Source: Vicinamibacteria bacterium
GTDB taxonomy: Bacteria; Acidobacteriota; Vicinamibacteria; Marinacidobacterales; Marinacidobacteraceae
NCBI GenBank assembly: GCA_963422395.1
Contig: OY729431.1
Coordinates: forward strand, 2,400,001-2,464,000
DNA length: 64,000 bases
Direction: 5' to 3'
The notes under the pieces were generated by a model. It searched no databases, had not been told where the DNA came from, and saw only the letters and a list, made by a program, of their open reading frames with translations. Below are positions 9,398-52,020 of the stretch, one piece after another; the first letter of the stretch is position 1, and every line of letters begins with the position of its first letter. The position numbers and the translations under genes were made by a program.

Positions 9398-9424
9398 CGG
9401 ATGGCTTCCGGAAACTCTGGGGGA

Positions 9425-10135
9425 TCAGGCGCTGGCGAGCGCCGGCGCAGGAGGGGAGAGGAGGGGAGGAGCGGTTTCCTCGTGGAGCCGTCCTCCCCGC
9501 AGCGAGAGCCGCCGGTCGGCGCGGGTGGCGAGCTCGGCGTCGTGGGTCGCCACCACCACCGCCGCTCCGGTCCGCTCGCGCACTCCGACCAGGAGTTCGG
9601 CGATCCGCGCCCCGGTCTCCTCGTCGAGGTTGCCGGTGGGTTCGTCGGCGAGCACCAGCCGCGGCTCGTTCGAGATCGCCCGCGCGATGGCCACCCGCTG
9701 CTGTTCGCCCCCGGACATCTGCGAGGGGAGGTGGTGCGCGCGCTCCGCGAGACCGAAGGATTCGAGCAGCGCCTGCGCCCGCTCGTGGGCGCCGGAGACT
9801 CCGGCGATCTCCAGCGGAACCCCTACATTCTCGAGCGCGGTCAGGTTGGGGAGCAGATGGAACGACTGGAAGACGAAGCCGAGGTGGCGGGAGCGGAAGA
9901 GCGCCAGTCGCTCCTCGTCGAGGGTCGAGAGGTCGACTCCGGCGACTTGCACGACTCCGGCCGTGGGGTGGTCGAGGCCCGCGAGCAGCCCGAGCAGCGT
10001 GGACTTGCCGCTCCCGGAAGGGCCGCGCACGCAGACGAACTCGCCGGCCTCCACCGCGAAATCGAGCCCGCTCAGGATGGTGAGATCGCGGTCCCCGCTC
10101 CGAACGGTCTTCCGAAGGCCTTCCGCCTGGATCAT
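9425..10135 (-). CDS. ABC transporter ATP-binding protein, YbbA/LolD-like
   Basis: Walker A GPSGSGKST, signature MSGGEQQRV, Walker B LADEPTGNLD. Confidence 0.95.
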   Translation of the reverse strand: MIQAEGLRKTVRSGDRDLTILSGLDFAVEAGEFVCVRGPSGSGKSTLLGLLAGLDHPTAGVVQVAGVDLSTLDEERLALFRSRHLGFVFQSFHLLPNLTALENVGVPLEIAGVSGAHERAQALLESFGLAERAHHLPSQMSGGEQQRVAIARAISNEPRLVLADEPTGNLDEETGARIAELLVGVRERTGAAVVVATHDAELATRADRRLSLRGGRLHEETAPPLLSPPAPALASA

Positions 10136-10212
10136 GAGTGACGAGCCGGTGGGGAAGCGCCCGTCCGCACCGGCTCACCGGAATCTTGCCACGAGTGGGT
10201 CCTGCCAAGACG

Positions 10213-22106: not shown

Positions 22107-23413
22107 CGGAAACGAAAAGCAGAACCGCGCTCGTCCTCGGGGCCGGGGCGATCGGACTTTCCTGCGCCTACTTCCTCAGGCGCGCCGGCTGGGAAGTCAC
22201 CGTCCTCGACCGGGGCGAGCCGGGGCGCGGCGCGACCGAGGGCACCGCCGGACTCCTGTGCCCGGCCCATTCCCAGCCGCTTCCCGGGCCCGGGGTCCTC
22301 CTCCAGGCGCTCCGCTGGATGTTTCGCCGGGACAGCCCGTTCCACATTCGCTGGCGCGCCGATCCTCGGCTCCTCGGCTGGCTGGCAGGCTTCGCGCGCG
22401 CCTCGACCCGCGCCCGCTCGCGAGCCGGGTTCACCGCCACCTGCGCCCTCTCCTCATCGAGCCTGCGCCTCTTCGAAGAGGTCCTGGGGCGCGGCGACGC
22501 CGACTTCTTCTTCGAGAAGGGGGGCGGCTGGCTGGCGTTCCTGACCGATCGGGGGCTCGCCCGCGGACGGGACGAGGCGGAAGAACTGCGGCGCCGAGGC
22601 TTCCCGGTGGAGCTCCTCGAAGACGGGGCCCTCCGGGAGCGCGAGCCCGCATTCGCCGCGGCGGTGCGCGGCGCGGTCTTCCTCCCCGGCGACGCCCACG
22701 GGCTGAGCCTGGGGTTCGCCGAGTCGCTGGCCGGGACGCTCGGGCGGCAGGGGGTCGTCTTCGAGATCGGGCTATCGGCCGAACGACTGCTGCTCCACCG
22801 AAGAAGAGTGCGGGGCGCCGAAGTGGTGACCGAAGCCGGCGCTCGTGAGGAACGCCTCGCCGACGAGACGATCCTCGCGCTCGGCGCCCGCTCGCCGGAA
22901 CTCGCCCGGACCGCCGGGGTTCGGTTGCCGATCCTGCCCGCCAAGGGGTACAGCGCGACGGTCCGCCGGTTCGCGGGGGCGCCGTCCCTCCCGATCACGG
23001 TAGCGGAACGCAAGATGATCATCACTCCCCTCGAGGATCGGGTGCGCTTCGCCGGAACCCTCGAACTCGCCGGATTCGACCCCCGGCTCGACCCGCGCCG
23101 CTACCAGGCGGTCCTCGCCGGAGCCCAGGCCGCCCTCGCGGCAGAGATCCCCCTTCGGGACGAAACGCCCTGGATCGGCTTCCGCCCCCTCACTCCGGAC
23201 AGCCTGCCGATCATCGGGCGTCCACCCCGCCGGGCCGGGCTCCTGATCGCCGCCGGCCACGGAATGCTCGGCTTCACCCAGTCTCTCGGCACCGGATCGC
23301 TGGTCCGGGAACTCGCCGACGGCACGGCGCCGAGCGTGGACCCGGCCCCTTTCGCGCCCTACCGCAGCGTGTTCGGACGAGCCGCAGACCCTCGGGTGCG
23401 GAGGAGGAGGTAG
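22103..23413 (+). CDS. FAD-dependent D-amino acid dehydrogenase (DadA-like); start uncertain
   Basis: Motifs VLGAGAIG, PAKGYS, RFAGT, GFRPLTPDSLPIIG and GHGMLG. No ATG/GTG/TTG close upstream; in-frame ATA at 22103. Confidence 0.85.
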   Translation: MAETKSRTALVLGAGAIGLSCAYFLRRAGWEVTVLDRGEPGRGATEGTAGLLCPAHSQPLPGPGVLLQALRWMFRRDSPFHIRWRADPRLLGWLAGFARASTRARSRAGFTATCALSSSSLRLFEEVLGRGDADFFFEKGGGWLAFLTDRGLARGRDEAEELRRRGFPVELLEDGALREREPAFAAAVRGAVFLPGDAHGLSLGFAESLAGTLGRQGVVFEIGLSAERLLLHRRRVRGAEVVTEAGAREERLADETILALGARSPELARTAGVRLPILPAKGYSATVRRFAGAPSLPITVAERKMIITPLEDRVRFAGTLELAGFDPRLDPRRYQAVLAGAQAALAAEIPLRDETPWIGFRPLTPDSLPIIGRPPRRAGLLIAAGHGMLGFTQSLGTGSLVRELADGTAPSVDPAPFAPYRSVFGRAADPRVRRRR

Positions 23414-24513
23414 TCGGCGAAGCTGGGAATCCCCATTTCCCAGACCGCCGACGAGGTCTCCCACACCACCCCGAGGTCGCGCAGGCGGGCGAGCAGCGAA
23501 ACCCAGTCCAGAGGGACGGATTTCCGGGCGGCGATCTCCCGAAGGAGCGGCATGAGCTCGCCGTCGCCGAGCCGTCCGCCGCGGCGGAGGATGCGGTCCG
23601 CGAGCGGGGCGAGAGCTTCGGCGACTTCGCGCTCCCGGGCCTCATCGAACCGCTCCTGGTAGAACCGTTCCACGGCGGCGGCTGCCGAGGCGGCCGCTGC
23701 CTCCGCCACCCGGGGGCCGACCCCGGCCTCGTCGTTTCGGGCAGCCGCCTCCCAGACGGCACTCCCGAACAGCTGGACGAAATAGGGATACCGCTGCGAC
23801 TTCTCCACCAGGAAGTCCAGTGCGTCCTCGGCGATCCGGCAGCCGCCGGCCGCAGCCGGTTTGGCCAGTGCGGCGGCAGCGGCGGCAGCGTCGAGCCGGC
23901 CGATCGGAAACCGCTCGAAAGCGCGCTCAGCGAAGGTCCCGGCACCCCGAATCCTCCTCGGTGCGTCCGGCGTTCCGGCGGCGACGACCCAGAAGGGCAG
24001 CTGGTCGGCAACGGAATTCTGGACCGCTTCGAAGAACATTCGGCCCACCTCGGGAGCCGCGGTCTGGACTTCGTCCAGGACGACCACCAGCGGCGGCGAT
24101 TCCACCAGCACCCAGGCCGCGAACAGCCGAGACACCTCCCCGGTGGGAGGCGCCCGTTCCGCAGCTGCGCCCAGGGGACCCAACTGCATACCGGTCAGCC
24201 GGCCCTCCAAAAGCCGGGCGCGTTCTTGCAGCGAACGAACCAGCCGTTCTTCCCTGCGGAGCGCCGCGGCTGGAAGGCGCTCGGCCCGCATCCCCAGCTC
24301 CCGGGCGCGCTCCGCGATGCGCTCCGCCAGCACCGTCTTGCCGTTCCCCCGCGGCCCGTAGAGGAGGAACCCCTGCGGCGGAGCCGTCCCGCCGGCGAGT
24401 TGCCGGAGCCGCTGCTCGGCGCTCGCGAGTTCGCCGTCGCGCCCCGCCAGCAAAGGGGGCATCTGGCCAGCGCCCGGCCGGAACGGGTTCTCGCGCGCTC
24501 CCGCCCGAACCAT
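23359..24513 (-). CDS. AAA-family P-loop ATPase (AAA_16-like)
   Basis: NPFRPGAG..PP.LAGR, Walker A GPRGNGKT, Walker B LDEVQ, and YPYFVQ. Confidence 0.85.
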   Translation of the reverse strand: MVRAGARENPFRPGAGQMPPLLAGRDGELASAEQRLRQLAGGTAPPQGFLLYGPRGNGKTVLAERIAERARELGMRAERLPAAALRREERLVRSLQERARLLEGRLTGMQLGPLGAAAERAPPTGEVSRLFAAWVLVESPPLVVVLDEVQTAAPEVGRMFFEAVQNSVADQLPFWVVAAGTPDAPRRIRGAGTFAERAFERFPIGRLDAAAAAAALAKPAAAGGCRIAEDALDFLVEKSQRYPYFVQLFGSAVWEAAARNDEAGVGPRVAEAAAASAAAAVERFYQERFDEAREREVAEALAPLADRILRRGGRLGDGELMPLLREIAARKSVPLDWVSLLARLRDLGVVWETSSAVWEMGIPSFADYLLLRTRGSAARPNTLR

Positions 24514-25368: not shown

Positions 25369-28300
25369 TCAAGATCCTTTTCTCTCCAGCGCGGCTTCCA
25401 GGACCCCGAGCGCCACCCGCCGGGCGAGATGCGGGTGGGCGAACTGGTTGCGGTAGCTCCGAAGACATCCGTAACAACTCCGGTCGCAGCCGCAGCCGCC
25501 TGCGACACGATCCCGCGCCCGTTCGAGGACCCGGCGAAAGCTGCGTTCGTCCGTCAGTTGCGCCACCAGGCCCGCCCCGCCGGGAACATCGTCGTAGAGG
25601 ACGACCGCACCCGGAGCGAGCGTCACATTCAGATCGCGCTCGGGTACCGCCACCGCGTCAGCAGCTCCGAGAAGCAGGGCGTAGCCCACCGAGTAACGAC
25701 CCCACCGGTCGAGCGGTTCCGGGAAACACACCTTTACCACATCGGTCTTCAGATCGTGGCCGAGCGAGAACCTGCGAAAGCACCCGGAGCATCGCTGCCC
25801 GTCTGACCTAAAGTGTTCAGACTTCGGACCGGCCTCGTGCTTACCGCACACTCCACACAACAGGAAACCTCTCCTCCCCGACCCCTCGCATAGAACGACC
25901 AATTCTCCGGGAACCGCTTCGCTTACCCCGATCCCGAAGATGTCCTTTTCGTCCGGCGAGCCCGTGCCGGTGAATCCTCGGAAGAAGGGGCGCGTCGAGT
26001 AGAGACGCTTGTTGCGCCTCTCCGGCGCCTTGGGTCTATCCCAAATTTTCGTTTCGAAACCGAATTCCGGCACGAGATACTTGCGGCCGCCCGCTTCAGA
26101 ACTCGGGCTTGTGAAATCCGGTTCTCCCGCTTCGTCGTCGCCGTAGGACCGCTCCCTCGGCTCCTTACCTTCGATCTTGCGGATGCCTACCGACTTCCAT
26201 TCCAGCTTGTTCGCCACCACGCTGCTTCCCGGGGCGTACTCGGCGATCGCCAGCGAGAGATCGCGGGAGAGCTCGATCTTCTCGCCTTCCTGCGACATCC
26301 CGGTGTGCAGTTCGACGACATCCACCGGGAATCCGTACTTCGGGATGACGGCTCGTCTAGCGAGGAAAGTCACCGCGCCTTCCTTGGAGATCGTGCGCAT
26401 CCTGTCATCTGCACGGCTCACTCTCCAGAATTTTCGATCTTTCAAGCTGTGATTCTCAATCCGCTTCATCAGCCGATACTCGTCGCAGACCTCGGAGGTC
26501 GCCTCGGCGAGCCGGCTGTCGAGCCCGGCGGCTCGATCGATCCAGCCTCCGTTCCCCAGGCCGAGCTCTTCGTAGAGGCTCTGCGGGACGATCCTGCGGA
26601 GAGTCTCCGAGAGCCGGCGGTTCTCCTCACAGAAACGTTTCAAGGATTCCGCCGCCGAGGGCTCGCTCCAGTCTCCGCCGACGAGCGCTTCGACGGATTT
26701 CGAGCGGCTGCAGTGGCGGGGGTCCCTGAAGAACGCCGAGAGCGCGACGGCCGTCAGATGGCGCGTCACGATCTTCGGATTCGCGATTCCGAGGCGCGGC
26801 GGCACGACGGTTCCGGCGATCAGGTCTTTGGGATTTTGGAAGTAATGGAGATCGTGTGGCCCCCTCCGGCAGTAGGTGAGCGCGAGGCCGGGCCGTTTCC
26901 GGCGCCCGGCGCGGCCGACACGCTGGGCGTAGTTGAAGGGTTCCGGCGGGACATTGCGGAGGAAGGTCACCTCCAAATCGCCCAGGTCCACCCCGACCTC
27001 GAAGGTCGTGGAGGAGCTGAGGAGATGGACCTCCCCGCTTTGGAACTCCGCCTGCCGCCTGCGCGCCTCGTCGTCCGCGAGTTGGGCGGTGTGCTCCGCC
27101 GTAGTCATCTTCGCTGGAAGATCCTTCAGCTCGTAGAGCGTGCGGTAGTGGTTCTCGGAGAGCTTCTCCATATCTACTGGTTTCAGGGCACCTCGGCAAC
27201 CGCTGCGGGGGCAGATCCTCCGGATGTCGTGGGGTGTGATCCGGGCGCAGGTGCCGCATTCCCGGAGTTCGGGCAGCTCGACGGCCCGTACCCGCAGCCA
27301 TCCCGCCTTCAGCCGAAAGGCACCATCTCCTCCGGCGCGTTCCAGCAGGCGCTCCTCGCTGGACACCTCGTCGTCGTGCTCCCTGATGGCGGCCCATACC
27401 GCCTTCATCAGTCTTTGCGCATCCTCCTCGCGATTAGCACCCTTCGGTAACGCCGAATCTCCGAGGAGTCGGGGAAGGAAGTGCTTCACCAGCGAACTCG
27501 TCTCGCCGCCCCATTCCGAGACTTGCTTTCTCCCGCGCGGAGCACTCCCCGCGAAAGCCGGTTGCCGCTGCGGGCGGGGGCTCACTCCCTTCCAGTCCGG
27601 GAATTCCGGGCCATCGGGCAGCGCGATCGCCCCGACCTCCCGAAATCGGGCCAGGAGGAACTGCAGCAGCGCCGCTGCTGCTTCCGGCGTGAAGTTCCAG
27701 GGCGGGCGCTGCATCTCCCGCGGCGGTTTCAAGCCGACCGGCAGCTGCACCGACCACCGCGCGATCCCGACACCTTCGAGCGACAGTCGGGTTTCCTCCG
27801 TGAGAGCCTCGGTGAGAATTGCCGAATACGCACGGCGCAGGACGGTCTCGGCGGTGTCCGAAACCGCATCCACGCCAGCATCGCGCCGGACGCGCACCAG
27901 CCGGTGCCCGAAATCCTCGACGGACAGCGCGCTTCGGCGAACCGGGTTTGCACTCCCGGTCCAGCAGAGCGCTCGCAGCATGAGGTTTCGGTCCCGAACC
28001 CTGGTGTAGGAGTCCTCGGCGTACCAGGCGAAGAACGCCGCGTCCTGCCGACTGTCCGCGAACGCCAGGATCTTGCGGGCTTCCTTCGGCAGGAGGCCGT
28101 GGACTGCAGTCGCCAGGACCGCGTTCGGTCCGTCGGCGCCGTGCACGATCTCCTGTACCGGATCACCGACGCCGCCGCGCCGATAACCGCAGCGGGCACA
28201 TTCCCTCAGCTGATCGGAGTGACCCGGCCGGTTCTTACCCTTCTTTATCGGGATCGAAGCCTCGCAACCGCAAGCAGAAGCCCCGCGGCCGATCGCGCCG

Positions 28301-29643
28301 CAGCGCCGGCACAGGGTTTCGCGGGCAGTATCGGCGGTCTCAGCAGAAGACGGCAGGTAGAAGTCCACGCCGAAATCGTGCCGGGCCGGATCCCGGACCG
28401 CCTCCACGAGCTTCCCGCCCTGGGCTTTGCCGACATAGTAGTGCTGGCCGCATTCCCGGCAGAGGGCGATCTCGAGCGGTTCCGCTGCCGGCCCGCCTCC
28501 CGGATCCCCGGAGACGCGGTTCAGGACGACGCGGTCCTGCCCTCGGTCGTGGAGCAGGAAGGCTCCCTCGAGGGCCCGGACGAACAGGTGGTAGCGCCGC
28601 ACATCCGACGCGCATTCGGCCTTCGATCCGGATTCCTCGTATTTGCCGAAAACGACTCCGCTGGGTTCGAACGGCTCTCCGAACAGGGTCCCGGCGAAGT
28701 CGGCGACGGCCCGTCGATCGTTTTCGGTACCGCCGGAGGCGATGGTCGCGCTGGTGGCGAGGCAGCGGAACGGTTTTCGCCTTCCTCCTTCTCGCAGGCG
28801 CTCCTTCAACCGGCGGAGCAGCATCGCCATCTCGATGCCCTTCGCGCCGCGGTAGGCGTGCGCCTCGTCCAGGATCAGGAAGCGCCAGTGTTCCCCGCGC
28901 CCTTCGTCGAACAGCGCACTCTCTTGCGGGCGGATGAGGAGGTACTCCAGCATGGAGTAGTTCGTGAACAGGATGTGCGGAGGGCTCTCCAACATGTCCT
29001 CGCGGAAGACCTTCTCGCCGGGAAGCGCTTTCCTCCCGCGCTCTGCTCCGTTTCGGCTCCTGTCTTGCGCGTTCTTGGGCGTCTGTCCGATGTACTGTCC
29101 GAAAGTGAAACGGAAATCGGAACCGGAGTTTGCCAAATCCCCACAGAGGCCGCCGAGTCGGCGGCGCTGGTCGTTCACGAGCGCGTTCATCGGGTAGAGA
29201 ACCAGCGCCCGAACCCCGGGACGGTCGAGCGTCCCGGCGAGGTGTTCCTGGAAGAGGTAGAAGAGGACCGGATAGAGGAAGCACTCCGTCTTGCCGCTCC
29301 CGGTACCGCTCGCGACGACGACATTCCGGTCCTCGAAATGGGCGGCGCGGATGGCGTGCTCTTGATGAAAATGGAGGTTTCCCTTCAAGAGTGCGGGGAA
29401 GAGTGCCTCGGCCTTTTCGGGGAATGTTTCCCGCGCGAGCTCCCGAGCTTCGATCCCCGGGGGGAATCGTCGTCCGTGCTCCGGAAATGGTCCCCGCAGC
29501 AGGTTCTCGCCCTCGCTGCCAAGCGCTTCCCGGAAAGATTGGCGCAGCGTCGGGTCGCGGAAATGGAAACTGGTCGTCAGGTAGCTGACATAGCGGGAAT
29601 GCAGGATATCGACCCAACGGTCGATCTCACTTGGAGTGGGCAT
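25369..29643 (-). CDS. DEAH-box SF2 helicase with Zn fingers and C-terminal DUF1998 (YprA/MrfA/DruE-like family)
   Basis: Motif I SGTGSGKT, Ia [54 protein letters not shown]. Several CxxC pairs and terminal [27 protein letters not shown]. Confidence 0.92.
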
Positions 29644-30157
29644 CGGCGCGTTCTCCTTCGAACTCCATTTCGATGTAACTCAAATCCTTGCCTCGAAGCT
29701 CCGCCACGCCTGCCTTCGAGCGAAGCGAGAGCAGTCCGGTCATCGTGGCCTCGACCACATTCTTCGGGTTTTTGCTGCCGAGAGATTTCGTCAGGATGTC
29801 CCCGATCCCCGCCAGCTCGATCACCGCCCGCGCCGGGCCGCCGGCGATGACGCCGGTTCCCCGTGATGCCGGTTTCAGCAGCACCCGCGCTGCTCCGAAC
29901 ACCCCCACCACCTGGTGCGCGATCGTCGAGCCCTCCCGGGGAATCGCCGTCAGATTCTTCTTGGCGATCTCGGTTCCCTTCTTGATCGCCGCCGGCACCT
30001 CACGCGCTTTCCCGAGCCCGAACCCGACGCGGCCATCCTCGTTCCCCACGACCACCAGCGCCGAGAAGGAAAGGTTCTTGCCGCCCTTCACCACTTTCGT
30101 CACCCGGTTGATCGAGACCACCTTGTCCTTGAGGTCCGGGGCTCCCGTGCGTTCCAC
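29627..30157 (-). other. rpsE: Complete uS5 (30S ribosomal protein S5) domain within the fusion ORF
   Basis: [102 protein letters not shown]; both S5 N- and C-domains are present. Confidence 0.95.
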
Positions 30158-32323
30158 CTGGATATTCCGGGGGTCGCGCGGCGGCCGCGGCCGGAGCTTT
30201 CTGGCCGGTTCGGGTTTCAGCGGCGGTGGATCCGGTGTCACCTCGATCAAGTCGAACTCCAGATCGGAATCCATACCGGGCAGCCGGAGCCGAAGCGCGC
30301 ACGCCTCGCTCATGTCCCGACCGACGGCAGCGTAGTCGCGGAAACTCTCGAGTGGAACGACCGAGCGGCGCTTGCTCGGGAAATCTTCGTCCCGTTTCGG
30401 AGTGAAGGACTGATATTCGCCACCATCCAATCCGTTCCCCAGGCCGACCTCGAGAGACTTCGCTGTCTCTGGCACGAGAACCTCGATTTCCTTCCCTGTC
30501 TTGCGGAATTGCGTACGCGTCATCGGAAGAAGGGTTCGACCCGCCCAATCTCCCTTTCCCGAGAGGCGCCACCAGACCCGCGGCAGGTGGACCGAGACAC
30601 CCATCTCCGACTTTCCCTCGCGGAGGAGCAAGCGCACTTCGTCGGCTTCGGGGCGGGACTGGACTCTCACCGCTCCGTCGGCGCTCAAGGAGGCATGCAG
30701 ACTCGATACCTCGGGACGCAGCCGGCCGCTGCGCCCGACGAGGCAAACGGTATCGCTGCGGCGGGAATCCGCCCCCGGCGCCAGCACCAGATCCTCCCGG
30801 AACGGCTCGCCGTTCACTCGGATCCCCTCGAGGCCGGGCCAGTAGCGGAAGGCGGCGCTATCCACGAGAGCCATTCCGCCCAGCGGATAGGTGCGCAGGA
30901 AGAACCGGCCCTTCCTCCCTTTCAGCACTTCGGCGATCGATCTCTCGGCTACGCGGAAGTTCTGACCCTTCCAACCACCCGGGCGTTCTTCCCCGACGCG
31001 CGCCCATTCGATGCCTTCCCCCACATCCAGCCTCGGCGGTTCCCCGACGAAGAGCTCCCCTTCGTCCGAGCTCTCGAAGAGAGACTCCCCCCACAGCCAG
31101 GCGCTCCGACTGGCCCCCGGCCGCCAATCCCCGATGGAACCGAGAGAGTCCGGAGAGTCGTCTTTCGAAGTGGTGAAGAAATGAGCGCGGAAATCGGGAT
31201 CCGAACAGGGCTCCGGTTCCCGGAACTCGTGCCCCTTTCGAGGCCAAGCGACAGGGGCGATCACGAGGTAGCGTCCGACGGTGATCCGCTCGCATTGCCG
31301 CCCCACCAGCAAGTCCTCAGAGCCCGAAAGCCGGAACCGGAGCGGCGTCTTCCCGTCGTCGAACAGCGGGATGCCGCCCGACTCCCCGTCGCCCCAAGCG
31401 AGCGACAACCTACCCGAGAAGGACGCCAGCGGATACTCGCTGTCCCGAGACTTCAAGTCGGTTTCGCCATGACGCATCGCCGTAACCCCCATCTCGGGAT
31501 CGACGGAAAGCACGATCTCCCACTCGTGGGAGCCGGGCGTTCTTCGGCACCGGAGTTCCGGCGGAGAGTCGGGTGGCCGGGACCGGGGCGCAATCGCTCC
31601 TGACGAACCCCGCCGCCCGCCGGTCCGGCGGGGTTCCCCCGGTTCCCGCGGCCTCTCGGGTTCCGGGGGTGGCCTCGGAGGCAGTGCGGCCTCGGGTGGG
31701 ACGGCACCTTCCGTCCGCGACTCGCCTTTCGGCAGTTCGTCCGATGGTTCGTCCGATTTCGGAGACGGAGATGCGGATCGGTCCTCCGGATCCCCGCCCT
31801 CCGCACCATCTCTCTGCGAGGGATCGGATGGCGCCGGAGGCCGCTCCGGAGGCGGGCTGCCACTCGCCCCGGGCGACTCGCCGACTCCACCCGGCGCATC
31901 GCCATTCCCGCCCGGCGCTTCATCACCGTTCCCCGCGCCCGGCGCCGGCGCGTCTCCCTCGCCATCGGCCTCGAGGACCCCTGCCCCCTCGTCCTCCTGT
32001 CCAGGCCGCCCGGCGGCTCCTTCTTCTTCCTCTGCTTCTTCGCCTTTCTCCGGTTCCTCGTCTTCCTCTGAACGCGGTTCTACCGCCTGTTTCCGACCTC
32101 CCGGCTCGGTTTCTCCATCGGCCTTCTGATCCGGCTCCAGCGGGGGACTTTCCTCCCCGCCCCCTCTATTCGACTTCGGGGCGACGACGACCGGAGAAGA
32201 CGGTGCTACACCGCCACCGGCTAAGCCGACGGGTTTCGGCGAGCGTCTGCGCCCTCTGCGCCGCCAGGTCCGGACCCCCTGGCGGAGCGCCCGGATCGCC
32301 CAGCTCAAAAGTCCGAACGCCAT
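29627..32323 (-). CDS. Large uncharacterised protein with a C-terminal ribosomal protein uS5 domain
   Basis: Uninterrupted ORF (track 29627..32443; likely start ATG 32323). Low-complexity N-terminus, ~440-aa globular middle, uS5 at the C-terminus. Overlaps the helicase start by 17 nt. Confidence 0.8.
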
Positions 32324-32524
32324 GGAGATCGGGGGCGGCGAAAACTGGCCACATATCCACCATATCCCCGAGGAGCGACAAAATGAAGCCACCCCGTCCA
32401 TTGCCCGAATTCGGAGCCTTTCCCGCTCCGCCGCAGAGCCCACCGAGGCTGCGTAGGCGGGGGCGCCGCTCTCACCCCAGCGAGCGGTCGTGCTGTCCGG
32501 CGGGCTTCCCTCTCGTTTCGGCCT

Positions 32525-37999: not shown

Positions 38000-38353
38000 C
38001 TAGCCGAGAGGTCGGCGGTCGCCGCCAGCTACGGAGCCGGCGAGGTCATTCGCACACCGGCCCACTTGGTGTTGTCGAAAGCCCGGAACATGAGCGGTCA
38101 TCAACGCTCTGAACAGCTTGCCGTGGTTGGGCACCCGCAGGTGGAGCAATTCGTGAACGATGACGAAGTCCTGAAAGTCCGGTTCGCGATCGGCGAGGTC
38201 GCCGGCCAGAGTCACGGTCCCGGAAGTCGAGCACGAGCCCCACTTCCGCACCATGCGCTGAACCCGCACGAGCCGCGGTCGGACCCGCAGCCGCCGCGAC
38301 CAGATTTCGACGCGGCGCCGCAGCGCCTCGCGCCGCTCGTCAGCCGCCTCCAT
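38000..38353 (-). CDS. YgjP/M48-like Zn metallopeptidase, type I R-M associated
   Basis: Motifs KWGSCS and [12 protein letters not shown]; overlaps the hsdR 3' end. Confidence 0.88.
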
Positions 38354-41294
38354 CGCTCTTCGCGGCCAGCAGAATGGAGAGGATGCGCTTCACGACCGGT
38401 GCTCGTTCCTTCCCTCCGAGTCGCAGCAGCGGCCGATAGAGGGCGGCGCGGAGCCGCCGCTCCTCTTCGGGATTGTCCGCCGCGCCCGGGAAGCGGGCCA
38501 GCAGCGCCTCCGCCTCCCGCGCCAGCTCCGCCGCCTGGATATCGGCGGCGCGAAGACCCGGATCGTCCTTCAGCGTCCACGAGATCCCGAACGCCCGCGG
38601 CGAGAGTTCGCTTTTCTCCAGGGCCTCGATAGCCGCCGCCTTTTCCCGGGCGAGGTCGGCCAACCGGTCGAGTGCGGCCAGCGCGGAGGTCGTGCGCTCC
38701 TCCAGGTCCTGCAGGATCCGTTCGGCGCGCTTTTTCAGAGGCAGCAGTATCACCTGCGCTTCCGGCTGCTCCTCGATTTCCTTCCGTAATCCGCGCACGA
38801 GATCGAAAACCTTGCTCTCGTCCGATCTGGACTGCCCGCGAAGTGCTTCTAGCGTCTCGAGGTCGAAGTCCACGCTCCGCACACCGAACCCCAACCCCTC
38901 CTGGACCCCGCTTTCCTGCACCAGCGCCGTCGTCTTGGCGCCCAGCTCCGCTGGGTAGTCGAAGCGGCGCGCGTAGGCGTTTTGCACAGTGGCGTAGAGG
39001 CGGGAAAGCCTCCGGTAGGTTGCGATCGAGTCCCGCAGCGCCGCCGACGGCGACAGGATCTCCCAGAGATCGCTGATCTCCCGATAGGCGGCGAAGAACT
39101 CGCGTCGCCGCACCGGGTCCAGAAAACACCCGTACACGACCTTCTCGAGGCGCTCGTCCTCCCCGCCGGCGCTTTCGTCCTCGAGCCAGTCGGCCTTCGC
39201 CCGGGCGATCTTCCCGTGAAAGTCCTGCATCAGCAGATCGAGGTCTTCGATCACGCCGCTGATGTCGGAAGAATCGAACCGCAAGGCCTTTTTCAACTCT
39301 CGTAGGACGCCGATGAAATCGACGACGAGGCCGAACCGCTTGCGGGCGCCGCCTTCGATCGCATGAGGGCGGTTCACCCGCGCGATCGCCTGCAAGAGCA
39401 CATGATCGCGCATCGGCTTGTCGAGATACAGGCAGTAGAGAAGCGGTGCGTCGAAACCGGTGAGCAGCTTGTCGGTGACGATGAGGATCTTCGGGTTTTC
39501 GTTCGCCTTCCGGAATCTCAGGCGGGTGTCCGCCTCCTGCTCCGGAGAGAGCTGGAGCTCGGCGACGAGCGGGCGGTCCACGATGTCGCCGGAACTCGCG
39601 GTATAGACCGGAGCGGTCCATGCCGACGGCAGAAGACGGTCGAGTGCGCGCTTGTACCGGGCGCAGGCTTCCCGATTCACTCCGACGAGGAACGCCTTGT
39701 AATCGAGCGGCGCCACATTCTCGAGGAAATGCCGGGCGACGAACGCCGCCACTCTCCCGATGCGGTCGTCGGCGGTCAGGAACGAGCGCAGGCCGACCGC
39801 CCGATCCAGCACCCGGTTGAGCTCCTCGATGTCGGTTATGCCCTCCTCCTCGGCCAGTTCGAAGAATTCCCGGTCGAGCCGCTCCAGCGGAACGGTCATT
39901 TCGCTCGGCGCCATGGTGTGGCGGATCGGCAGCGTGGTCTCGTCGGCGATGGACTCGGCGATGGTGTACTTGTCGAGATACCCCTGCTCATCGTCGGCGC
40001 CGAAGATCTTGAAGGTGCCCGTCCCGTGCGCGGTCCGGTCGATCGGGGTGCCGGTGAAACCGATGATCGTGGCGTTCGGGATCGCCGCCATCAGATAGCT
40101 GCCCATATCTCCGGCGACCGAGCGGTGCGCCTCGTCGAGGAACACGAAGATGTTGCGGCGGAGGTTGGCGTCCTTCTCGATCCCCTCGAACTTGTGGATC
40201 ATCGAGAGGATCAGTCCGCGTCTGTCGGTGTGGAGCAGATCCCGAAGCTCGGCCTTCGATTCCGCCTGCCCGACCGGAATGTCCTGCTGCTGCATTTCGC
40301 CGAGAAGCCGTTCGACCCAGCCCGCCAGCTGCCCCTCGAGTTCCCTCCGGTCCACCACGACGATCACGGTGGGGTTTCCGAAGCGGTTCGCGCCGTCCTG
40401 CACGATCAGGCGGGCGGCGGTCAGCAGCGTGAATGTCTTGCCGGAACCCTGGGTGTGCCAGATGAGTCCGCGCCGTTTCGCTGGCTCGGCACAGCGCTCG
40501 ACGATGCGCTCGGCGGCGCGGCGTTGGTGCTGGCGCAATATCGACTTCCGGGTCTCGCCGTCCTCGATGTAGAAGAGGATCCAGTCCCGGAGCGTGCGCA
40601 GGAAATCGGTCGGTTCGAAAAACGACTGGACGGCGAACCGGTAGCTGTCTTCCCGCGGCTCCTTCCAGCGCGCCGCGAAGCGGCGCGTGGCGTTCCAGGT
40701 CACGCCGTACCGGGTTTCGAGGAGATCGGTGACATTGAAGAGCTGCGCTGCGCCCATCAGCTCGGGCGTCTCGATCTCATAGCGCCGCAGCTGCCTGATT
40801 CCCCGCCCGACGGCGTCGGGATCGGCCGGATTCTTGTGCTCGACGATGGCGGCCGGCACGCCGTTGACGACGAACATCACATCGGCGCGGTTTCCCTTCC
40901 TGGCCGGAGGCTCGATCCTCCACTCCCAGGTGACATGGAGGGCGTTCGCTCCCGGCGTCTCGAAGTCGACCAGCCGGACATGCCGACTGCGTTCTTCGGC
41001 CTCGTCGTACCACTGCCGCTCGCCCCGCAGCCAGGTGAGCATTTCCCGGTTTCCCTCGATGGTCGGCGGAATGGCTTCCAGCTTCTCGACGACCGAGCGG
41101 ACCGAATCGTCCATCATCCAGGGGTTGAAACGATGGAGCGCTCCCTCGACCTCATCGCGAAACAGCATCCGGTCCACACCGCCCCGCTTCCCGATCGCGG
41201 CCTTCGGCGCGAGCGGCGCCCAGCCGATCTCCGCCGCATGGCGGACCATCGGAAACTGCACCGAACCCGCCTCGCTGATCCGGAGATCGCTCAC
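38340..41294 (-). CDS. hsdR: Type I restriction enzyme R subunit
   Basis: Nuclease [37 protein letters not shown] and LQAIARVNR. Start set at GTG 41294. Confidence 0.95.
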
Positions 41295-41313
41295 GACCGG
41301 ACCTTCCGCTGGG

Positions 41314-42090
41314 TCACCCCGAAAGGCTCTCGCCCAGAAATCGGATGATGCGGTCACGGTTCGCGGGCAAACTGGAGAACTGCTTATCGGACACATCACT
41401 GAAGCGCGCCAACACTTTTCGATTGATCGCCTCCTGATCTTCGAAGATCGCCACGGACCGGAAAGAGACTCCCCATCTCTCGAACTGATGCAGCGCGATC
41501 GTGGCATCGCGGGTTCTGTCGTCGTTGGGGAGGGCATGCACGAAAAGTGGCCTCGAAGCGCCGTTGATTCGGCAATCTACGGAGTACTTTCCCTCTGGAT
41601 CGCGTTCGGCATCGTTCCAGTCGAAACGCCGTCGCTCTTCCGGCGCGACCTCGCTCAACAAATTCCGAAAGTCCTCCAGGAATGTCGACCGGACCTGCTC
41701 GCGCGACAGATAAGACACATCCGCAATCCTGAGCAGGGCCTGGATGAAGGAATACAGCGCATCACCGTAGCGTCCGTCCGGAATGCCCAGAACCAATTCT
41801 CCATCCCGGTCCTCGATCTGAAATGTGGACAGCGCATTGGAGATGATCGTCTGACGCGTTCCCCGGTGCAGATCTCTCTCGGCGATGTCGTAGGTGAGGT
41901 GCATGTAGGTGTGCGCCTCGTCGGAGAGCACCCACCCCGCTCCCTCCCGTCTCAGAACGATATCCAGATGATCGCCGTCGTCGAACAGGAACGGAGTGAA
42001 CACCCGAAAGCGGTCGACCCCCTCGGGCTCGATCCGCACCTTGGCCGACACCTTGCAGTGGAAATCCCGCACCATGGTTTCGATGGACAT
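41314..42090 (-). CDS. DUF1828-like protein
   Basis: [11 protein letters not shown] and LSDEAHT, recognised as DUF1828-like by eye. The C-terminal YSVDCRING segment may be a PD-(D/E)xK-like module. Confidence 0.7.
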
Positions 42091-42573
42091 CTACTTCCTC
42101 CCGAAGAGACCGTGCGGCAACTCCTGCGGCGCCGTAAAGCCGGCGTCGGCGAACAGACAGCGCAGGGCCTCGAAAACTGTGGCGTAACGATCGGTGGTCT
42201 CGGCGTAGGAATCCTCTCTTGCGCCGAGATCCTGATAGCGTTCCGTCGCGCAGTGGATGTGGAAGTCGTAGAAGGTGTTGCCCTCGATGGGATTCGTGTG
42301 TTCATGGCTTCTGCCGTTGTAGCGGCGGAGCCGAAAAACCTGCGTCGATTGCGGAACGAGTACAGCGAGGATGACGGAGAAATCCATGGAATCGATCCTG
42401 TTCTTTCGGAGAATCACCCGGAACTCGCTCCCGTGCATCCCGACGATATCCAACTGTTGCTCTTCGTGCCCCCGCTTCGGCTTCATCTGCACGCGGCGGC
42501 GCCAGTCCGCAGGCAGCTCCTTGGGCTCCTGTAGCAACCCCTCGATGTCACAGTCGGTGTAGGTCACAGCCAT
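42091..42573 (-). CDS. Hypothetical protein with HxNP...HxH motif (DUF6978-like)
   Basis: LRRYNGRSHEHTNP...FHIHCATERY; its stop abuts the next ATG. Confidence 0.65.
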   Translation of the reverse strand: MAVTYTDCDIEGLLQEPKELPADWRRRVQMKPKRGHEEQQLDIVGMHGSEFRVILRKNRIDSMDFSVILAVLVPQSTQVFRLRRYNGRSHEHTNPIEGNTFYDFHIHCATERYQDLGAREDSYAETTDRYATVFEALRCLFADAGFTAPQELPHGLFGRK

Positions 42574-42576
42574 CGG

Positions 42577-43847
42577 CTACTCCCGATCCGGAACACGAGC
42601 CGTCACCCTACCAGTATGGTTGCCAGGGAATGCGTCCGATCCGTTGTCGAGGTCCGCGGCGCGGATCTCGCCGGTCATCAGCTCGTGGAGGAGGGTCTTG
42701 AACAGGTCATCGAGGACGGCGCGCTTTCCCCGATGCAGCTCCACCTTCCGGTCGATGGCGTCGAGGATGGCGACGATCTCGCATTGTTCGTCTCGAGGCG
42801 GATGCGGAATCGGCAACTCAGCAAGACGGGAACGGGAGAGGTTGGGGATGGTCGTGCGGTTCCCGGCTCCCTCATAAACTCCACGGTGCTTGAATCCCTC
42901 TTCCAGCCATGCCATCGCGAAGCGTGGATGTGTCCAGGAGGAGTCCGAAGAGCGCAGGCGGTGGAGATGGTTCTGAAAGAGACACCGTTCGATCTCGCCG
43001 TTCCAAACGGCGGCGCGACCGATCTCGCCGCCCTCGCAGACCAGAAGATCGTCGTCTCGAAGCATCTTTTTCTCGGGAATGCCGTTGTCGAGGCGCATCC
43101 GGCTGACGGTCTGCAGTTCGATGCGTCCCCAATACACATTCGAGGTGCGGAGGAACGGTGATCCGGTGTCCCCGCTTGCAAGGTTGCCCTTCAGGGAAAG
43201 CCCCTGCTCGATGTCGAAGAGACTGCCGATAGTCTCCAGCTCCCAGCTCTTCGGCAGCGGCCCGATTTCCGTTTCCTTCTGCAGCTCGCCGCGCAGGCCG
43301 CGCGTGAAGAGAGTTCCCATCGCGGCGCGCTTGAGGGACCGCCCCGATTCGATCAAATTCTCGGATGCTCGGATCGCTTCCTGAATGATCCACAGGAAGT
43401 CGGAGATCGTCCGGTGATCGTCGGGCGTGAACGCGGGAAGAACGAACTCGCGTATGTGCGGCCAGGATGTCCTGGGATGCTGCACTCCGGTTACGCCGGA
43501 TACGGCGTACTCTACGAAGGCCGGCGAATGAACGACGCCGGCCACGAAGCGCGGATCGACGCCTTCTTTCGCCCGCAGCACCAGCAGTTCTGTGGTACAA
43601 ACACCTTCGTTCCCAGCGAGCACTGCTTTGTCCAGGTAGGGACGGAGCTTGCCGTAGAGGACATCACCGGGTCGGAAAGCAGACTTGTGGCTCCGCACCT
43701 CCGACGCCTTTCCCGTCCCCACGGGAAGAAACCGTCCGGACGCGAGGTGCTCAAGGCCGATATAGACGGCGTCGGGCCGGTCGCGGGGATCGACATTCTC
43801 CGCGGCGAGGTCGCAAAGGTCCGCGAGGCGCGTCGTCGTAGCGAAGT

Positions 43848-43851
<4 letters not shown>
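42577..43851 (-). CDS. hsdS: Type I R-M specificity subunit
   Basis: Two TRDs with conserved spacers: [27 protein letters not shown] and LLHELMTGE. Confidence 0.92.
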
Positions 43852-45698
<1,847 letters not shown>

Positions 45699-45704
45699 GT
45701 ATGA

Positions 45705-45770
45705 GATATATGCTATATCGAATCCTGACTCGATCATCGCTGGTGATCCCATTCGGCATCCAGGATTCGA
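45705..45770. promoter_or_regulatory. Candidate operator palindromes upstream of hsdM
   Basis: GATATA-TGC-TATATC (45705-45719), plus a 10-bp inverted pair TCGAATCCTG (45718-45727) / CAGGATTCGA (45761-45770), in the divergent intergenic gap. Confidence 0.45.
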
Positions 45771-45776
45771 TCCGAG

Positions 45777-46736
45777 ATGAAATCGAACGGCCCCGGTCCG
45801 GAACGCGCGCGGTCGAGCGGCGAACAGCGAGGGTCGAGTGCGGTCGTGAGTGTGGACGGCTGGATCGGGCCGCCGGAGGAGGCGAGCGTGCGCCCGCTGG
45901 ACCGGGGTTTCCTCTACGGCGAGGCGGTGTACGAAAACCTCAGGACCTACGGCGGCGAACCCTTCCTCGAAGGCCGCCATCTCGGGCGGCTGCGCCGTTC
46001 GGCGGCGTACCTGGGGATTCCGCTGCGGCTCTCCGACGCCGAGATCGGCGAGCGGCTCCGAGCAGCCCTCTCGGCAGCCGGAGGGGGCGAAGACGGAGAA
46101 CACTCGCTGCGGCTGATCCTCACCGCCGGCCCCGAGGGCGGCGTCCCGTCCCTGGTGATCCTGGTGCGGCCGCTGCCGCCGCTGCCGGTGGATCCGGAGC
46201 GGGAGGGAGTGGGCGTGCTGCTCTTCGACCGGGTGCGGACGGCGCCGGTCGGCTTGCCAGCGGATGTGAAGACTACGAACCTGCTGGGAGGGCGGCTCGC
46301 GGTCCGCGAGGCACATGCTGCCGGAGCGCACGAGGCGGTGTTCCGAAGTCCCGGCGGCGGCCTCGCCGAAGGAGCCACCTCGAATCTGTTCCTCGTCCAC
46401 GATGGAGTGGTCCGCACCGCGCCGGCGTCCGCCGGTCTGCTCCCCGGGATCACCCGCTCCCTCGTGTTCGAAGTGCTGGACGAACTCGGGATCCCGTGCG
46501 AGGAAGCGCGGCTGCCGACGACGCGTCTGGAGGACGCCGACGAAGCCTTTCTCACGAGTTCGTCGCGCGAGGTGCTGCCGGTGACCTGGGTCGCAGCTCC
46601 CGGCAGCCGCCGGCAGGACATCGGCGATAGCCGGCGAATCATCGGGAACGGGAAGCCGGGCGCACTCACTCTGCGCGCCCTCGCCGGCTACCGGCAGACG
46701 GCGCGGCGACTTCTCGGCGCACCGGAACTCGGCTGA
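45777..46736 (+). CDS. Class IV aminotransferase (IlvE/PabC/Dat family)
   Basis: Motifs [30 protein letters not shown] and ADEAFLTSS. Confidence 0.92.
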
Positions 46737-46763
46737 TTCCGGTCCCTTCGGCAGCCCCGGACG

Positions 46764-49154
46764 GTGGTACATTCGTCCGCTAGCATGGTCGCGGCCTCGC
46801 CTCGCGGAAGGCCCCCGTCCGGCGGAAGGATCCGAACCCGCAGAAGCGCCCGAATTCTCCGCTGGAGGATCGCCGGCTCCTGGCCCCTGTTGCTCCTCGG
46901 ATTCGCCGCCCCGCCGGCAGCGGCGGCGCAGCAGCTAGCGGCTGCCCGGGCCATCGATTTCGAAACGGTCCGTTTCGAGCGCCGGCTGACGGCGGTCCGC
47001 GCCGCCGGACCCATCGAGGTGGACGGAGTTCTCGGTGAGGACGAGTGGGCGGGCGCCGCGCTGGTCTCTGGGTTCACCCAGGGGAACCCGAACGAAGGGA
47101 TGCCCGCCACCTTCGAGACCGAAGTCCGGGTGCTATACGACGACGAATCCCTCTACATAGGCGCCTTCGCCTACGACGACGCCCCCGACGAGATCATCGT
47201 GAACGATCTGTCGCGCGACTTCTCGACCCGCGCCGGCGACATCTTCGGAGTGGTGCTGGACACCTTCCACGACCGCCGGAACGGCTACATGTTCGAGACG
47301 AACCCCGCCGGCGCGAAGTTCGACGGGCAGGTCTTCAACGAGGGCCGCGAGTTCAACCGGGACTGGGACGGGGTCTGGCACGTCCGCACCCGGCGGGTCG
47401 CGGGCGGCTGGCAGGTGGAGATGGCGATCCCGTTCAAGACGCTGCGCTTCCGGGAAGACCCGGAGCAGACCTGGGGCATCAACTTCCTGCGCCGGGTCCG
47501 CCGTCTGAACGAGGACGCCTTCTGGGCGCCCATTCCCCGGTTCTTCAACTTCGCCCGCGTCTCCTATTCGGGGACCCTCGAAGGGCTCCTGGACCTGAAA
47601 GCGGGAGGACGGTTCAAGATCACCCCCTATCTGGGCGCCGACACCAGTCAGGGCGCCGCCGAGGTCGATGCCGGCGCGGAGTTCTCCGCCGCTGCCGGGG
47701 TGGATGCGAAGGTGCTCCTGGGGACCGGGCTGAATCTGGACCTGACCGTGAACACCGATTTCTCGCAGGTGGAGGCGGACCTCCAGCAGGTGAACCTCAC
47801 CCGCTACAGCCTCTTCCTCCCCGAAAAACGCGATTTCTTCATCGAGAATTCGGGCATCTTCCGATTCGGGGTTCCCTCGGACTCCCGGCTCAACCAGTTC
47901 CGGGCCGACTTCGGGCAGGCGTTCAATCCGTCGGTCCTGCGATCCAGCCAGAGCCGCGGCGACGACCTGTACCTCTTCTTCAGCCGTCGGATCGGCCTCT
48001 CCGCTTCCGGGACCCCGATCCCGGTGCTCGGAGGCGGAAGGCTCACCGGGCGGGCGGGACCCTACGAACTCGGGATACTGAACATCCAGACCGGCGAACA
48101 CCAGGATGCCCCTCGGTCCGAGAATTTTTCGGCGGTCCGGGTGCGCCGGAACATCGGCGGAAACTCGGATGTGGGCGCCATCTTCCTGAATCGGGAGGCC
48201 GGGTCGGGCAGCGACCACTTCAACCGCTCGGTAGGCGCCGACGCCAACCTCCGCATCACTCCGGAGCTGGAGCTGAACTCCTACTGGGCGCGCACGATGA
48301 GCCCGGCGGCGAACCCGGAGCCGGCGGTAGACCCTGGCGGTCACGAACAAGCCGCCCGGGTCGCGGCCAACTACGACGGGCGGCTCTGGCAGCTTCGCGG
48401 AGCCTGGTCGGTCCTCGGCGACGACTTCGACCCGGAGATGGGCTTCGCTCCGCGGGTCGGCATCCGCCGACTGCTGGGATACGCCGGGTACCACTACCGC
48501 CCGGCCTGGTGGAGCGACTTCCTGCGCGAGTTCAACCCGCACTTCGAGTTCAACGACTTCGAGAACAGCGACGGCGAGCTGGTGAGCCGTTATGTCAACT
48601 GGCACTTCGCCTTCCGCCACCAGAACGGCTCCCTGTTCGAGTTCGGCTACAACGACAGCGTCGAGAACACCTTCGACGCCTTCGACATCCACCCGACGAC
48701 CGTCGTCCAGCCCGGCGAGCACCACTACGACGAGTGGTTCGTGATGGTGTTCTCGAATCCCAGCCGACCGCTGTCGCTGAACGCGCGCTACGACTGGGGC
48801 GGGTTCTATTCGGGTACCCGGAAAGCACTCAACCTGAGCACGGTGGCTCGCGCCGGGGGCAAGCTGACCGCCTATCTCGGCTGGAGCCGGAACGACATCG
48901 CGCTTCCCGAAGGGGAGTTCGTCACCGACCTGCTCACAGCGCGGCTCACCTGGACCTTCACCACCAACATGTTCCTGAACGCGCTGATCCAGTACAACAG
49001 CGTGACCGAAGACTGGAGCTCCAACATCCGCTTCAATCTCATCCACCGACCGCTGTCCGATTTCTTCATCGTGCTCAACGACCGGCGCGACCCGATGGGC
49101 AACCGCCTCGACCGCGCGCTGATCGCCAAGTACACGATCCTGATGGATTTCTGA
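46764..49154 (+). CDS. CBM9-like/DUF5916 outer-membrane-type protein
   Basis: Motifs [28 protein letters not shown] and PEKRDFF; terminal Phe. Start uncertain (46764 or 46785). Confidence 0.8.
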
Positions 49155-50740: not shown

Positions 50741-50917
50741 CGGGGGGGCGACTCTACCGGAATCGGCTCCCGAGGGATCGTCGCCGATGGAGCGACGGAT
50801 TCTGACATCCGACCGCGGTAGGGTCTTTCTCGCGGGGCCCGGAAGGCCGGCCGGTACAATGGCACTCCAACGGGTCGCCGCCGAGACGCCCGCACCCCTC
50901 CGACGCCACAGTTCCCG

Positions 50918-52016
<1,099 letters not shown>

Positions 52017-52020
<4 letters not shown>

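Follow-up and report, generated by a model that had tools for sequence, protein, structure and literature searches.

A probable Druantia-like two-gene module whose partner protein carries ribosomal-protein domains in an exchangeable C-terminal slot

We analyzed a 64,000-nucleotide (nt) stretch of the genome of a Vicinamibacteria bacterium (assembly GCA_963422395.1, contig OY729431.1, positions 2,400,001 to 2,464,000; hereafter the window), which contains, between positions 25369 and 32323, a pair of overlapping minus-strand genes encoding a large partner protein that ends in ribosomal protein uS5 and a helicase of the DruE/YprA family. The partner gene (29627..32323) encodes 898 amino acids (aa) from an ATG at 32323, a start that fits the N termini of its homologues, while the longest frame (29627..32443) is open from a GTG at 32443. 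The protein begins with an amphipathic helix rich in basic and aromatic residues, a trait shared across the family (residues 1-30, 32234..32323). This is followed by a low-complexity linker defined by its composition, acidic and rich in Pro, Gly, and Ser (residues 31-224, 31652..32233; D+E 24%, K+R 8%, PGSTA 57%), and by a basic motif that the family alignments show to be conserved directly N-terminal to the core (31577..31651). The core itself, about 440 aa without a known family, was delimited in an alignment of eight sequences termed A3 (30236..31576), and it leads through a Pro-rich hinge of 22 residues (30170..30235) into the uS5 domain, in which both Pfam halves are present (29681..30136). 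The stop codon of the partner and the ATG of the helicase overlap by 17 nt (29627..29643), and the helicase, a superfamily 2 (SF2) protein of 1424 aa recognized by PADLOC and Pfam, occupies 25369..29643. A preliminary description of the window had already read this anatomy from it, namely a single open reading frame (ORF) with a basic N terminus, an acidic and Pro-rich linker, a core of about 440 aa, a hinge, and a full uS5, overlapping a zinc-binding DUF1998 helicase by 17 nt and lacking spc-operon neighbours; our analysis bears out every part of it. A scan of the stretch for promoters and terminators gave no signal above chance.

The last 170 residues of the partner form a complete bacterial uS5. 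This head scores 207.8 bits with TIGR01021, against a cut-off of 164.05, over model positions 3-154 of 156, and Pfam finds S5 (2.2e-27) and S5_C (8.1e-27). The genome, a single contig of 2.9 Mb, harbors a second uS5 gene at 2671333-2671791, flanked in the normal spc order by rplR (2671869-2672195) and rplO (2670526-2670999). The two copies lie 241 kb apart, and none of the spc-operon genes flanks the fused one. The presence of a separate rpsE between rplR and rplO rules out that the window holds the only rpsE of the genome. Nor is the head a stand-alone spc-operon gene, as it is fused and has lost its start codon. The DNA at 29670-30188 can be aligned with the rpsE locus without gaps (455 of 519 nt identical, 88%), and the match starts in the 5′ flank of rpsE, about 25 nt before its start codon. 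The last ~19 nt of the hinge (30170-30188) belong to this rpsE-derived segment, which includes the ~25 nt of 5′ flank, and the host ATG is aligned to an ATC (Ile, 30161..30163) that is now read through in frame.

We conclude that the fusion is not a chimera, because contigs of three sequencing runs bridge the core-uS5 junction at 30100-30300 (X1 and X4, 2231 nt; X3, 685 nt) and because the same layout recurs, with differing linkers, in independent assemblies; a chimeric assembly is ruled out on these two grounds. The independent recurrence, with S5_C present in 13 of 28 proteins scanned with Pfam (the window protein and 27 relatives), is the better support, the three runs being from one study that may be the source of the assembly. 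Run X5, taken from another study, covers both sides of 29994-30244 but leaves 29994-30209 and 30642-30749 uncovered; we draw no conclusion from these gaps. One X5 contig diverges from the window at 30245 as a loose end, and it may be that in some strain the sequence of the hinge and of the head's first half (29994-30244) is different. At 29886-29998, short, high-depth unitigs occur in three runs; they probably represent exact words common to the fused uS5 and the rpsE of the genome, at which the assembly graph branches.

The head is of host origin. The number of synonymous substitutions per site (dS), estimated with the Nei-Gojobori method (NG86), for which values above 1 are close to saturation, is 0.40 between the fused uS5 and the genome's own rpsE, compared with 0.74-1.16 between the fused uS5 and the rpsE of other hosts and 0.79-1.39 between host rpsE genes from different genera of the same family. 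In a DNA tree of 26 sequences, the fused uS5 and the genome's own rpsE form a clade with support 100/99. The alternative of one clade uniting three fused copies (window, G003, and L063), a group chosen for the approximately unbiased (AU) test after a weaker protein tree had been seen, is worse by 26.7 log-likelihood units and is rejected (AU p 0.02). The dS values and the clade with rpsE together indicate that the head was copied from, or overwritten by, the rpsE of its own lineage after the genus had split from the others sampled. The ratio of replacement to synonymous rates (dN/dS) between fused uS5 and rpsE is 0.146, that between host rpsE genes of different genera 0.03-0.08, and 4 of the 120 residues that are invariant in 19 host uS5 proteins are altered in the head. 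These values show that the window head is under purifying selection, and they rule out a relaxed, decaying uS5 at this locus. Across nine uS5 heads, 2-8 of about 120 host-invariant residues are altered, and decay does hold for the heads of L003, L004, L006, and G016. In L003 (9764-9965) and L004 (9743-9925), the partner stops short, leaving a gap of about 180 nt before the helicase start, and of the domain only a decayed S5_C remnant survives; both heads look midway through loss, those of L006 and G016 being intermediate.

The capture of a host-type uS5 had been proposed in the preliminary description, which called for reads across the junction, a search for a separate rpsE, and a tree of both copies. 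It named three outcomes as telling against it: an unspanned junction, a genome with this rpsE alone, or a fusion absent from related genomes with relaxed selection on uS5. As described above, the junction is bridged, rpsE stands in the spc operon, the tree joins the two copies, and none of the three outcomes was observed.

The partner belongs to a family defined by its core. Used as the first query, the middle region retrieved 28 relatives that differed in their C-terminal Pfam domains. A core-only profile built from A3, whose eight sequences come from several phyla, then matched 887 representatives at E<=1e-3, 488 of them at <=1e-30, among 1.84 billion proteins, and a third homologue search added no further members. 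The members examined here are the best 150 of the 887 representatives together with the proteins of the first search; 171 of them match the core hidden Markov model (HMM), 165 have a complete core end, and 162 carry a tail of at least 40 aa. The N-terminal layout of amphipathic helix, acidic low-complexity region, and basic motif is common to 140 members, whose first 30 residues contain a median of 12 hydrophobic residues and 5 K+R. The acidic region has a median length of 195 aa and a median D+E content of 20%. The motif ahead of the core follows the consensus EGPRxxxEPWRxGxRR / PRxIGGRR (alignments A1, A4, and A5), and the last 25 residues before the core hold a median of 6 K+R. The core matched nothing in Pfam, and no DruH model of PADLOC matched any of ten family members. 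Against PDB sequences, profile A3 gave two chance-level matches only, and a 62-member profile (A5) matched through its eL13 tail and not through the core. Aligned by hhalign with the 1069-aa partner of a Clostridium butyricum helicase described below, the core gave a probability of 0.08. By these comparisons, the partner core appears to constitute a new, so far unnamed family. Among the 120 best uS5-containing long proteins, those above 600 aa without spc neighbours are apparently members of it, nine being confirmed and one, P0202, being a putative member.

The C-terminal slot of this family is filled by different proteins. Pfam detected S5_C in 13 proteins of the initial set (the window protein and 27 relatives), S5_N in 10, a NusA-like KH domain in 6, L13e in 5, and S1 and S18 in one each. 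Across the 162 members with a tail, we count 114 eL13-like heads, 16 uS5, 7 KH, 2 bS6, one bS18, and one bS1; the remainder comprises one TrcR-like head, one weak helix-hairpin-helix head, and about 20 that are of no assigned kind or short. Labels were given by a uS5 HMM, an eL13-motif pattern, manual reading, and Pfam spot checks, a procedure that replaced a single-linkage clustering of the tails in which head classes had been merged. In a Pfam scan of 62 members, L13e was confirmed in 40 of the 59 labelled eL13-like, and Pfam likewise confirmed uS5 in P0115, P0166, and P0032 and S6 in both bS6 cases. Against PDB, the 62-member profile matched 70 sequences; all 60 of those listed are eL13 chains, with a best match of 1.1e-11 over about 51 residues, and the likeness to eL13 is therefore real, though short. 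With PF01294, the partner itself was the only match in four of five host genomes checked. No helix-turn-helix, cold-shock, RNA-recognition motif (RRM), or zinc-finger head was found among the named head classes, and NCBIfam, applied to ten members with unassigned heads, returned a weak ADOP-permease-like match and otherwise noise. Odd heads or additions occur in P0101, P0139, and one A5 member, in the form of a piece similar to an acidobacterial ADOP permease (1.9e-7), the beginning of the cell-cycle regulator TrcR (2.3e-10), and a PIN nuclease domain (1.4e-5).

Heads have been exchanged repeatedly in the history of the family. On the core tree, computed with FastTree only, at least 23 head changes are required. 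One clade of 23 rows (support 100) contains only uS5, bS18, bS1, and KH heads, and uS5 heads appear again apart from it, having been acquired at least twice. Other heads are likewise similar to host proteins. Over 594 aa, N-terminal extension included, the bS1 head shares 83% identity with the rpsA product of this genome; identity is 75% over 60 aa for the bS18 head and 39-51% between the KH heads and NusA. The bS6 heads reach only 32-35% identity and probably originate in other phyla. Net charge varies widely, from +14 for bS18, +13.5 for uS5, and +7 for the last 60 aa of eL13-like members to about 0 for bS6 and -26 for bS1.

The helicase matches the DruE1 and DruE3 models of PADLOC (2.8e-142 and 2.7e-132), and Pfam recognizes DEAD, Helicase_C, and MZB/DUF1998. 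The repair-type model TIGR03817, which has a cut-off of 874 bits, gives 1.4e-31, far below the DruE models. The protein comprises a RecA1 domain of the DEAD/DEAH kind (Pfam, residues 93-302, 28738..29367), a Cys-rich insert with the pairs C395/C398, C445/C448, C458/C460, and C482/C485, invariant in orthologues (28189..28461), a RecA2 (Helicase_C) match (Pfam, residues 843-915, 26899..27117), and the MZB/DUF1998 zinc-binding domain (Pfam, residues 1321-1394, 25462..25683), beyond which the C terminus extends for only 30 aa. In eight orthologues, Walker A, DEAH, motif VI, the MZB cysteines C1384, C1386, C1390, and C1393, and several paired-Cys clusters are invariant. The Cys-rich insert may correspond to the zinc-binding beta-barrel insert of the ARMADA/Druantia branch (Bell et al. 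2025; this and the other recent papers cited here were available in part, and what we say of them holds for those parts). Neither Pfam nor PADLOC found a nuclease family in the partner or in the helicase.

The pairing of the two genes is conserved. The helicase lies directly downstream of the partner in all nine other loci (7/7 in genomes and 2/2 in metagenomes, one of the latter cut by a contig end). In the seven genome loci, which come from Acidobacteria (Candidatus Marinacidobacterium), Pseudomonadales, Alphaproteobacteria, and Paracoccaceae, it is full length and 51-71% identical to that of the window. No third gene is common to all loci. The module is patchily distributed, with 7 of 28 genomes in the family and 2 of 401 in the phylum sample containing it, and a second uS5 was found in 6 of 19 genomes of the family and in none of 12 from two sister families, related genomes not being independent of each other. 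The same chromosomal site holds the module in the window, L003, and L004. At this syntenic site, the flanking genes are conserved at 74-80% identity and the helicase at 68-71%, but the partner at only 46%, which suggests that the partner evolves fast. Searches of plasmid and phage collections (tblastn) and of IMG/VR viral contigs found no family members, and a metagenome scan yielded two loci only. The preliminary description had thus rightly seen a two-gene module with a DruE/YprA helicase and no recognizable nuclease domain in either gene; the C-terminal slot, about which it had asked, is richer than expected, holding uS5, bS6, bS18, bS1, NusA KH, or the eL13-like motif in relatives. A likeness of the middle region to DruH or DruF, for which it had suggested looking, was not shown by sequence comparison. 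Its two readings of the head, as decoy or as tether, are weighed below, and the translation-linked output that it held plausible is conjectural.

Further defence genes lie within 26 kb of the module. A complete type I restriction-modification (R-M) set on the minus strand (38340-46772) consists of hsdR (38340-41537), a small DUF6978 ORF (42091-42573), hsdS (42577-43851), and hsdM (43848-46772), which at 974 aa is unusually long and is extended at its N terminus by a helix-turn-helix. Next to SspC (51378-55382, plus strand; PADLOC 2.2e-243), part of the Ssp phosphorothioate defence system, lies an HNH/type IV-like restriction enzyme (49784-51136, minus strand). With the R-M genes, the HNH enzyme, and SspC, a defence island extends from 25 kb to at least 55 kb. 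Some 0.9 kb beyond the helicase, on its downstream side, is a STAND-like AAA ATPase (23359-24513, minus strand; AAA_16, weak nSTAND1), which PADLOC does not match and whose adjacency to the module is not conserved at the other loci. Farther away, a 1020-aa ORF (7079-10141, plus strand) has a G+C content of 0.88 at first codon positions, which suggests a low-complexity or repetitive protein.

We are highly confident that the two genes form a genuine Druantia-like module whose partner belongs to a new family; homology and genomic context point to a role in defence. As to the function of the head, we tentatively favor docking on ribosomes or ribosome-bound mRNA. In favor of docking over generic binding, the heads that could be identified come from the ribosome or from NusA, some being acidic, and do not represent the usual folds for binding nucleic acids. 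The effector would be the compact, nuclease-less DruE/YprA helicase, expected to load on single-stranded DNA (ssDNA) and to unwind 3′-to-5′ by likeness to E. coli DruE, for which this has been shown. The upstream gene would act as sensor or adaptor, which is the role of DruH, here taken by a different family. Its C-terminal slot takes a module of the translation or transcription-coupling apparatus; the default head is the ~50-aa eL13-like motif, predicted to bind ribosomal RNA (rRNA), which in one acidobacterial clade was replaced by copies of the host's own uS5, bS1, bS18, or NusA KH, and elsewhere by bS6 or by uS5 again. Through its head, the partner would dock on ribosomes or ribosome-bound mRNA, the docked pair would survey DNA under expression, and a change at the expressed DNA would release or license the helicase, both the docking and its coupling to the helicase being speculative.

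Several points weigh against docking. Characterised Druantia III acts on DNA, without any link to ribosomes. The heads of L003 (60.9 bits), L004 (48.1), G016 (89.2), and L006 (121.3) fall below the cut-off of 164; several uS5 heads are thus too decayed for assembly into the 30S subunit, yet the frames of their modules are open, and even an intact uS5 with 720 additional N-terminal residues may be unable to assemble. The eL13 label of the majority is our own pattern, which Pfam confirmed in about two-thirds of the members scanned; the match spans only ~50 of the model's 180 positions, and since bacterial ribosomes, to our knowledge, lack an eL13 equivalent, the motif may not bind them. About 20 of the 162 heads are unassigned, and the ADOP-permease-like and TrcR-like ones are not translation parts. 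All these counts, moreover, concern the best 150 of 887 representatives and the proteins of the first search.

A possible, if less probable, alternative to docking is that the head is an integrated decoy, a bait mimicking a host protein that phage factors attack or bind, upon which the partner would switch the helicase on. In agreement with this idea, entire proteins of the cell itself are copied in the heads, in host-like form: the uS5 derives from the rpsE of the genome, no more than 2-8 of about 120 host-invariant residues are changed, and bS1 is full length. Moreover, uS5 was gained at least twice, the window head is host-like compared with the decayed heads at the syntenic site in L003 and L004, as if renewed from rpsE, the core is fast-evolving, and divergent heads suit an arms race better than ribosome assembly. 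Three of the proteins represented among the heads, bS1, bS6, and NusA, are classic targets of phage enzymes or regulators (T4 ModB, T7 Gp0.7, lambda N). However, neutral gene conversion between the paralogues could account for the renewal from rpsE, phage factors directed at uS5 or bS18 are not known to us, and the eL13-like motif in 114 of 162 members mimics no bacterial host protein. This majority and the badly decayed uS5 heads sit badly with a pure host-mimic reading. It is possible, though less probable than docking, that the slot is an exchangeable bait, refilled again and again with ribosomal and transcription-coupling proteins of the cell (uS5, bS1, bS6, bS18, and NusA), and that the module would guard the translation machinery against phage take-over factors and respond through its DruE helicase.

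It is unlikely that the head is a generic nucleic-acid binder, such that any RNA- or ssDNA-binding domain would serve to hold the substrate of the helicase and ribosomal genes would merely be abundant donors. S1 and KH domains do bind single strands, most heads are basic, and the decayed uS5 heads remain basic in genes that remain open. In addition, E. coli DruH binds ssDNA through its C-terminal region (Hu et al. 2026). Against this stand the bS6 and bS1 heads, which are not basic, and the lack of helix-turn-helix, cold-shock, RRM, and zinc-finger heads among the named classes. Also, bS6 binds rRNA only in a specific context, and the near-complete retention of host-invariant uS5 residues together with a dN/dS of 0.15 exceeds what generic binding needs.

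Still less probable is a role outside defence, as a housekeeping or stress module, for instance a ribosome-associated helicase or a uS5 paralogue released from a precursor. The YprA family has a repair branch, MrfA (Bell et al. 2025), the module occupies a syntenic chromosomal site in three genomes, and it was not found in the plasmid, phage, and viral-contig collections. However, the DruE models match end to end at 1e-142, whereas the repair-type model reaches 1e-31, the module is confined to 7 of 28 family genomes, the partner is fast-evolving, the neighbourhood is a defence island, and no model of paralogue supply explains varied proteins in one slot. Finally, an artefact, whether a chimera of assembly or a gene-calling read-through across two separate genes, is scarcely credible: although the database gene call at the locus begins internally (628 aa) and a separate uS5 could in principle start at GTG 30157, contigs of three runs cover the junction, independent assemblies show the fusion with different linkers, ATC stands in place of the former ATG, and a separate rpsE exists elsewhere in the genome.

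Few defence systems are as widespread as Druantia, and the debate over what its partners sense continues. In the partner family described here, the presumed sensing end can be read from the sequence because it is made of proteins of the ribosome or of the mRNA path, and in one lineage the head proteins are demonstrably copies of host genes, more than once. A DNA helicase defence would thereby be tied to the translation apparatus, a link that goes unmentioned in those parts of the Druantia literature that we examined. If the heads are anchors, the module would count among the rare defence systems that are positioned on the ribosome; if they are baits, the list of captured proteins points to host proteins targeted by uncultured phages. 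A bait slot, if true, would give prokaryotes an analogue of the integrated decoys found in plant nucleotide-binding leucine-rich repeat receptors (NLRs) and would serve as a guide to the ribosomal proteins that phages attack. The family occurs almost wholly in uncultured marine-type lineages, which may be why it has been overlooked.

We compared the module with known systems. As in plant NLR integrated decoys, a copy of a host protein is built into a presumed immune protein, and varied domains occupy one slot; unlike there, the bait role is putative, the commonest head (eL13-like) copies no host protein, and the receptor scaffold is unrelated. The window head resembles canonical uS5 (rpsE) in exceeding the equivalog cut-off and in keeping 116 of 120 host-invariant residues, and differs from it in standing behind ~720 residues and outside the spc operon, in its lost start codon, and in evolving about 3-4 times faster at replacement sites. 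Our search of the literature found no description of this combination of partner and ribosomal head, although supplementary tables of operon partners might name it; the main text of Bell et al. 2025 mentions neither ribosomes, NusA, decoys, L13e, uS5, nor translation, and the available part of Himpich et al. 2026 does not mention ribosomes. The helicase is not one of the MrfA/YprA repair helicases, which have the MrfB exonuclease as partner or none: the DruE models score far above TIGR03817, and the upstream partner does not belong to an exonuclease family.

Among defence systems, the comparison is with Druantia III. DruE falls within the YprA family, which includes the DNA-repair branch of MrfA and whose Druantia III-like helicases are mostly nuclease-less (Bell et al. 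2025, 10.1101/2025.09.15.676423). The module shares with type III-A, represented by the E. coli DruH-DruE pair, the helicase lineage, the two-gene logic, and a partner regarded as a sensor that binds nucleic acid via its C-terminal part. A preprint (10.64898/2026.05.12.724681) counts DruH as a YjiT-family protein and makes a case for it as the sensor, and E. coli DruH, composed of an N-terminal globular domain, six immunoglobulin (Ig)-like subdomains, and a C-terminal domain, binds ssDNA at the interface of its Ig domains and C-terminal domain (Hu et al. 2026, 10.64898/2026.05.12.722862). The differences lie in both genes: E. coli DruE has ~2000 aa and two domains like phospholipase D (PLD), compared with 1424 aa and no nuclease here, and E. 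coli DruH, of ~1100 aa with its six Ig-like subdomains, is unrelated in sequence to the window partner. Type III-B comes closer, comprising a compact DruE without PLD domains and a DruH lacking annotated domains (Himpich et al. 2026, 10.64898/2026.05.13.724758). Like it, the module consists of two genes in one operon, the upstream partner overlapping a DEAD/Helicase_C/MZB helicase that is free of a PLD nuclease. In the mycobacterial (M. smegmatis) DruH-DruE pair, whose interaction is reported to be required (Li and He 2026, PMC13316683), the genes reportedly overlap by 17 bp, as they do by 17 nt here. However, none of ten members of the partner family is matched by a DruH model of PADLOC, the core of the window partner matches no Pfam family, and a ribosomal-protein head is absent from the available description of III-B, whose DruH was compared by description only.

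Measured against the definition of Druantia III, the locus has a DruE-type helicase and a single upstream partner in the operon. By sequence, that partner is not of the DruH type (YjiT family, with an Ig-like or J-like scaffold); the C-terminal PLD-like nuclease domains that mark DruE of III-A are absent, and the III-B or III-like description fits. A plasmid of Clostridium butyricum (L055, 1783-9668) encodes a DruE-like helicase of 1559 aa (DruE1, 6.4e-177) with an overlapping upstream partner of 1069 aa, which matches neither the PADLOC DruH models nor the partner family of the window. The partners of DruE-like helicases appear to be more diverse than current models cover. Since the helicase of the window fits the compact, nuclease-less kind while its partner fits no description of DruH, we file the module as Druantia-III-like rather than as a proven member of that system.

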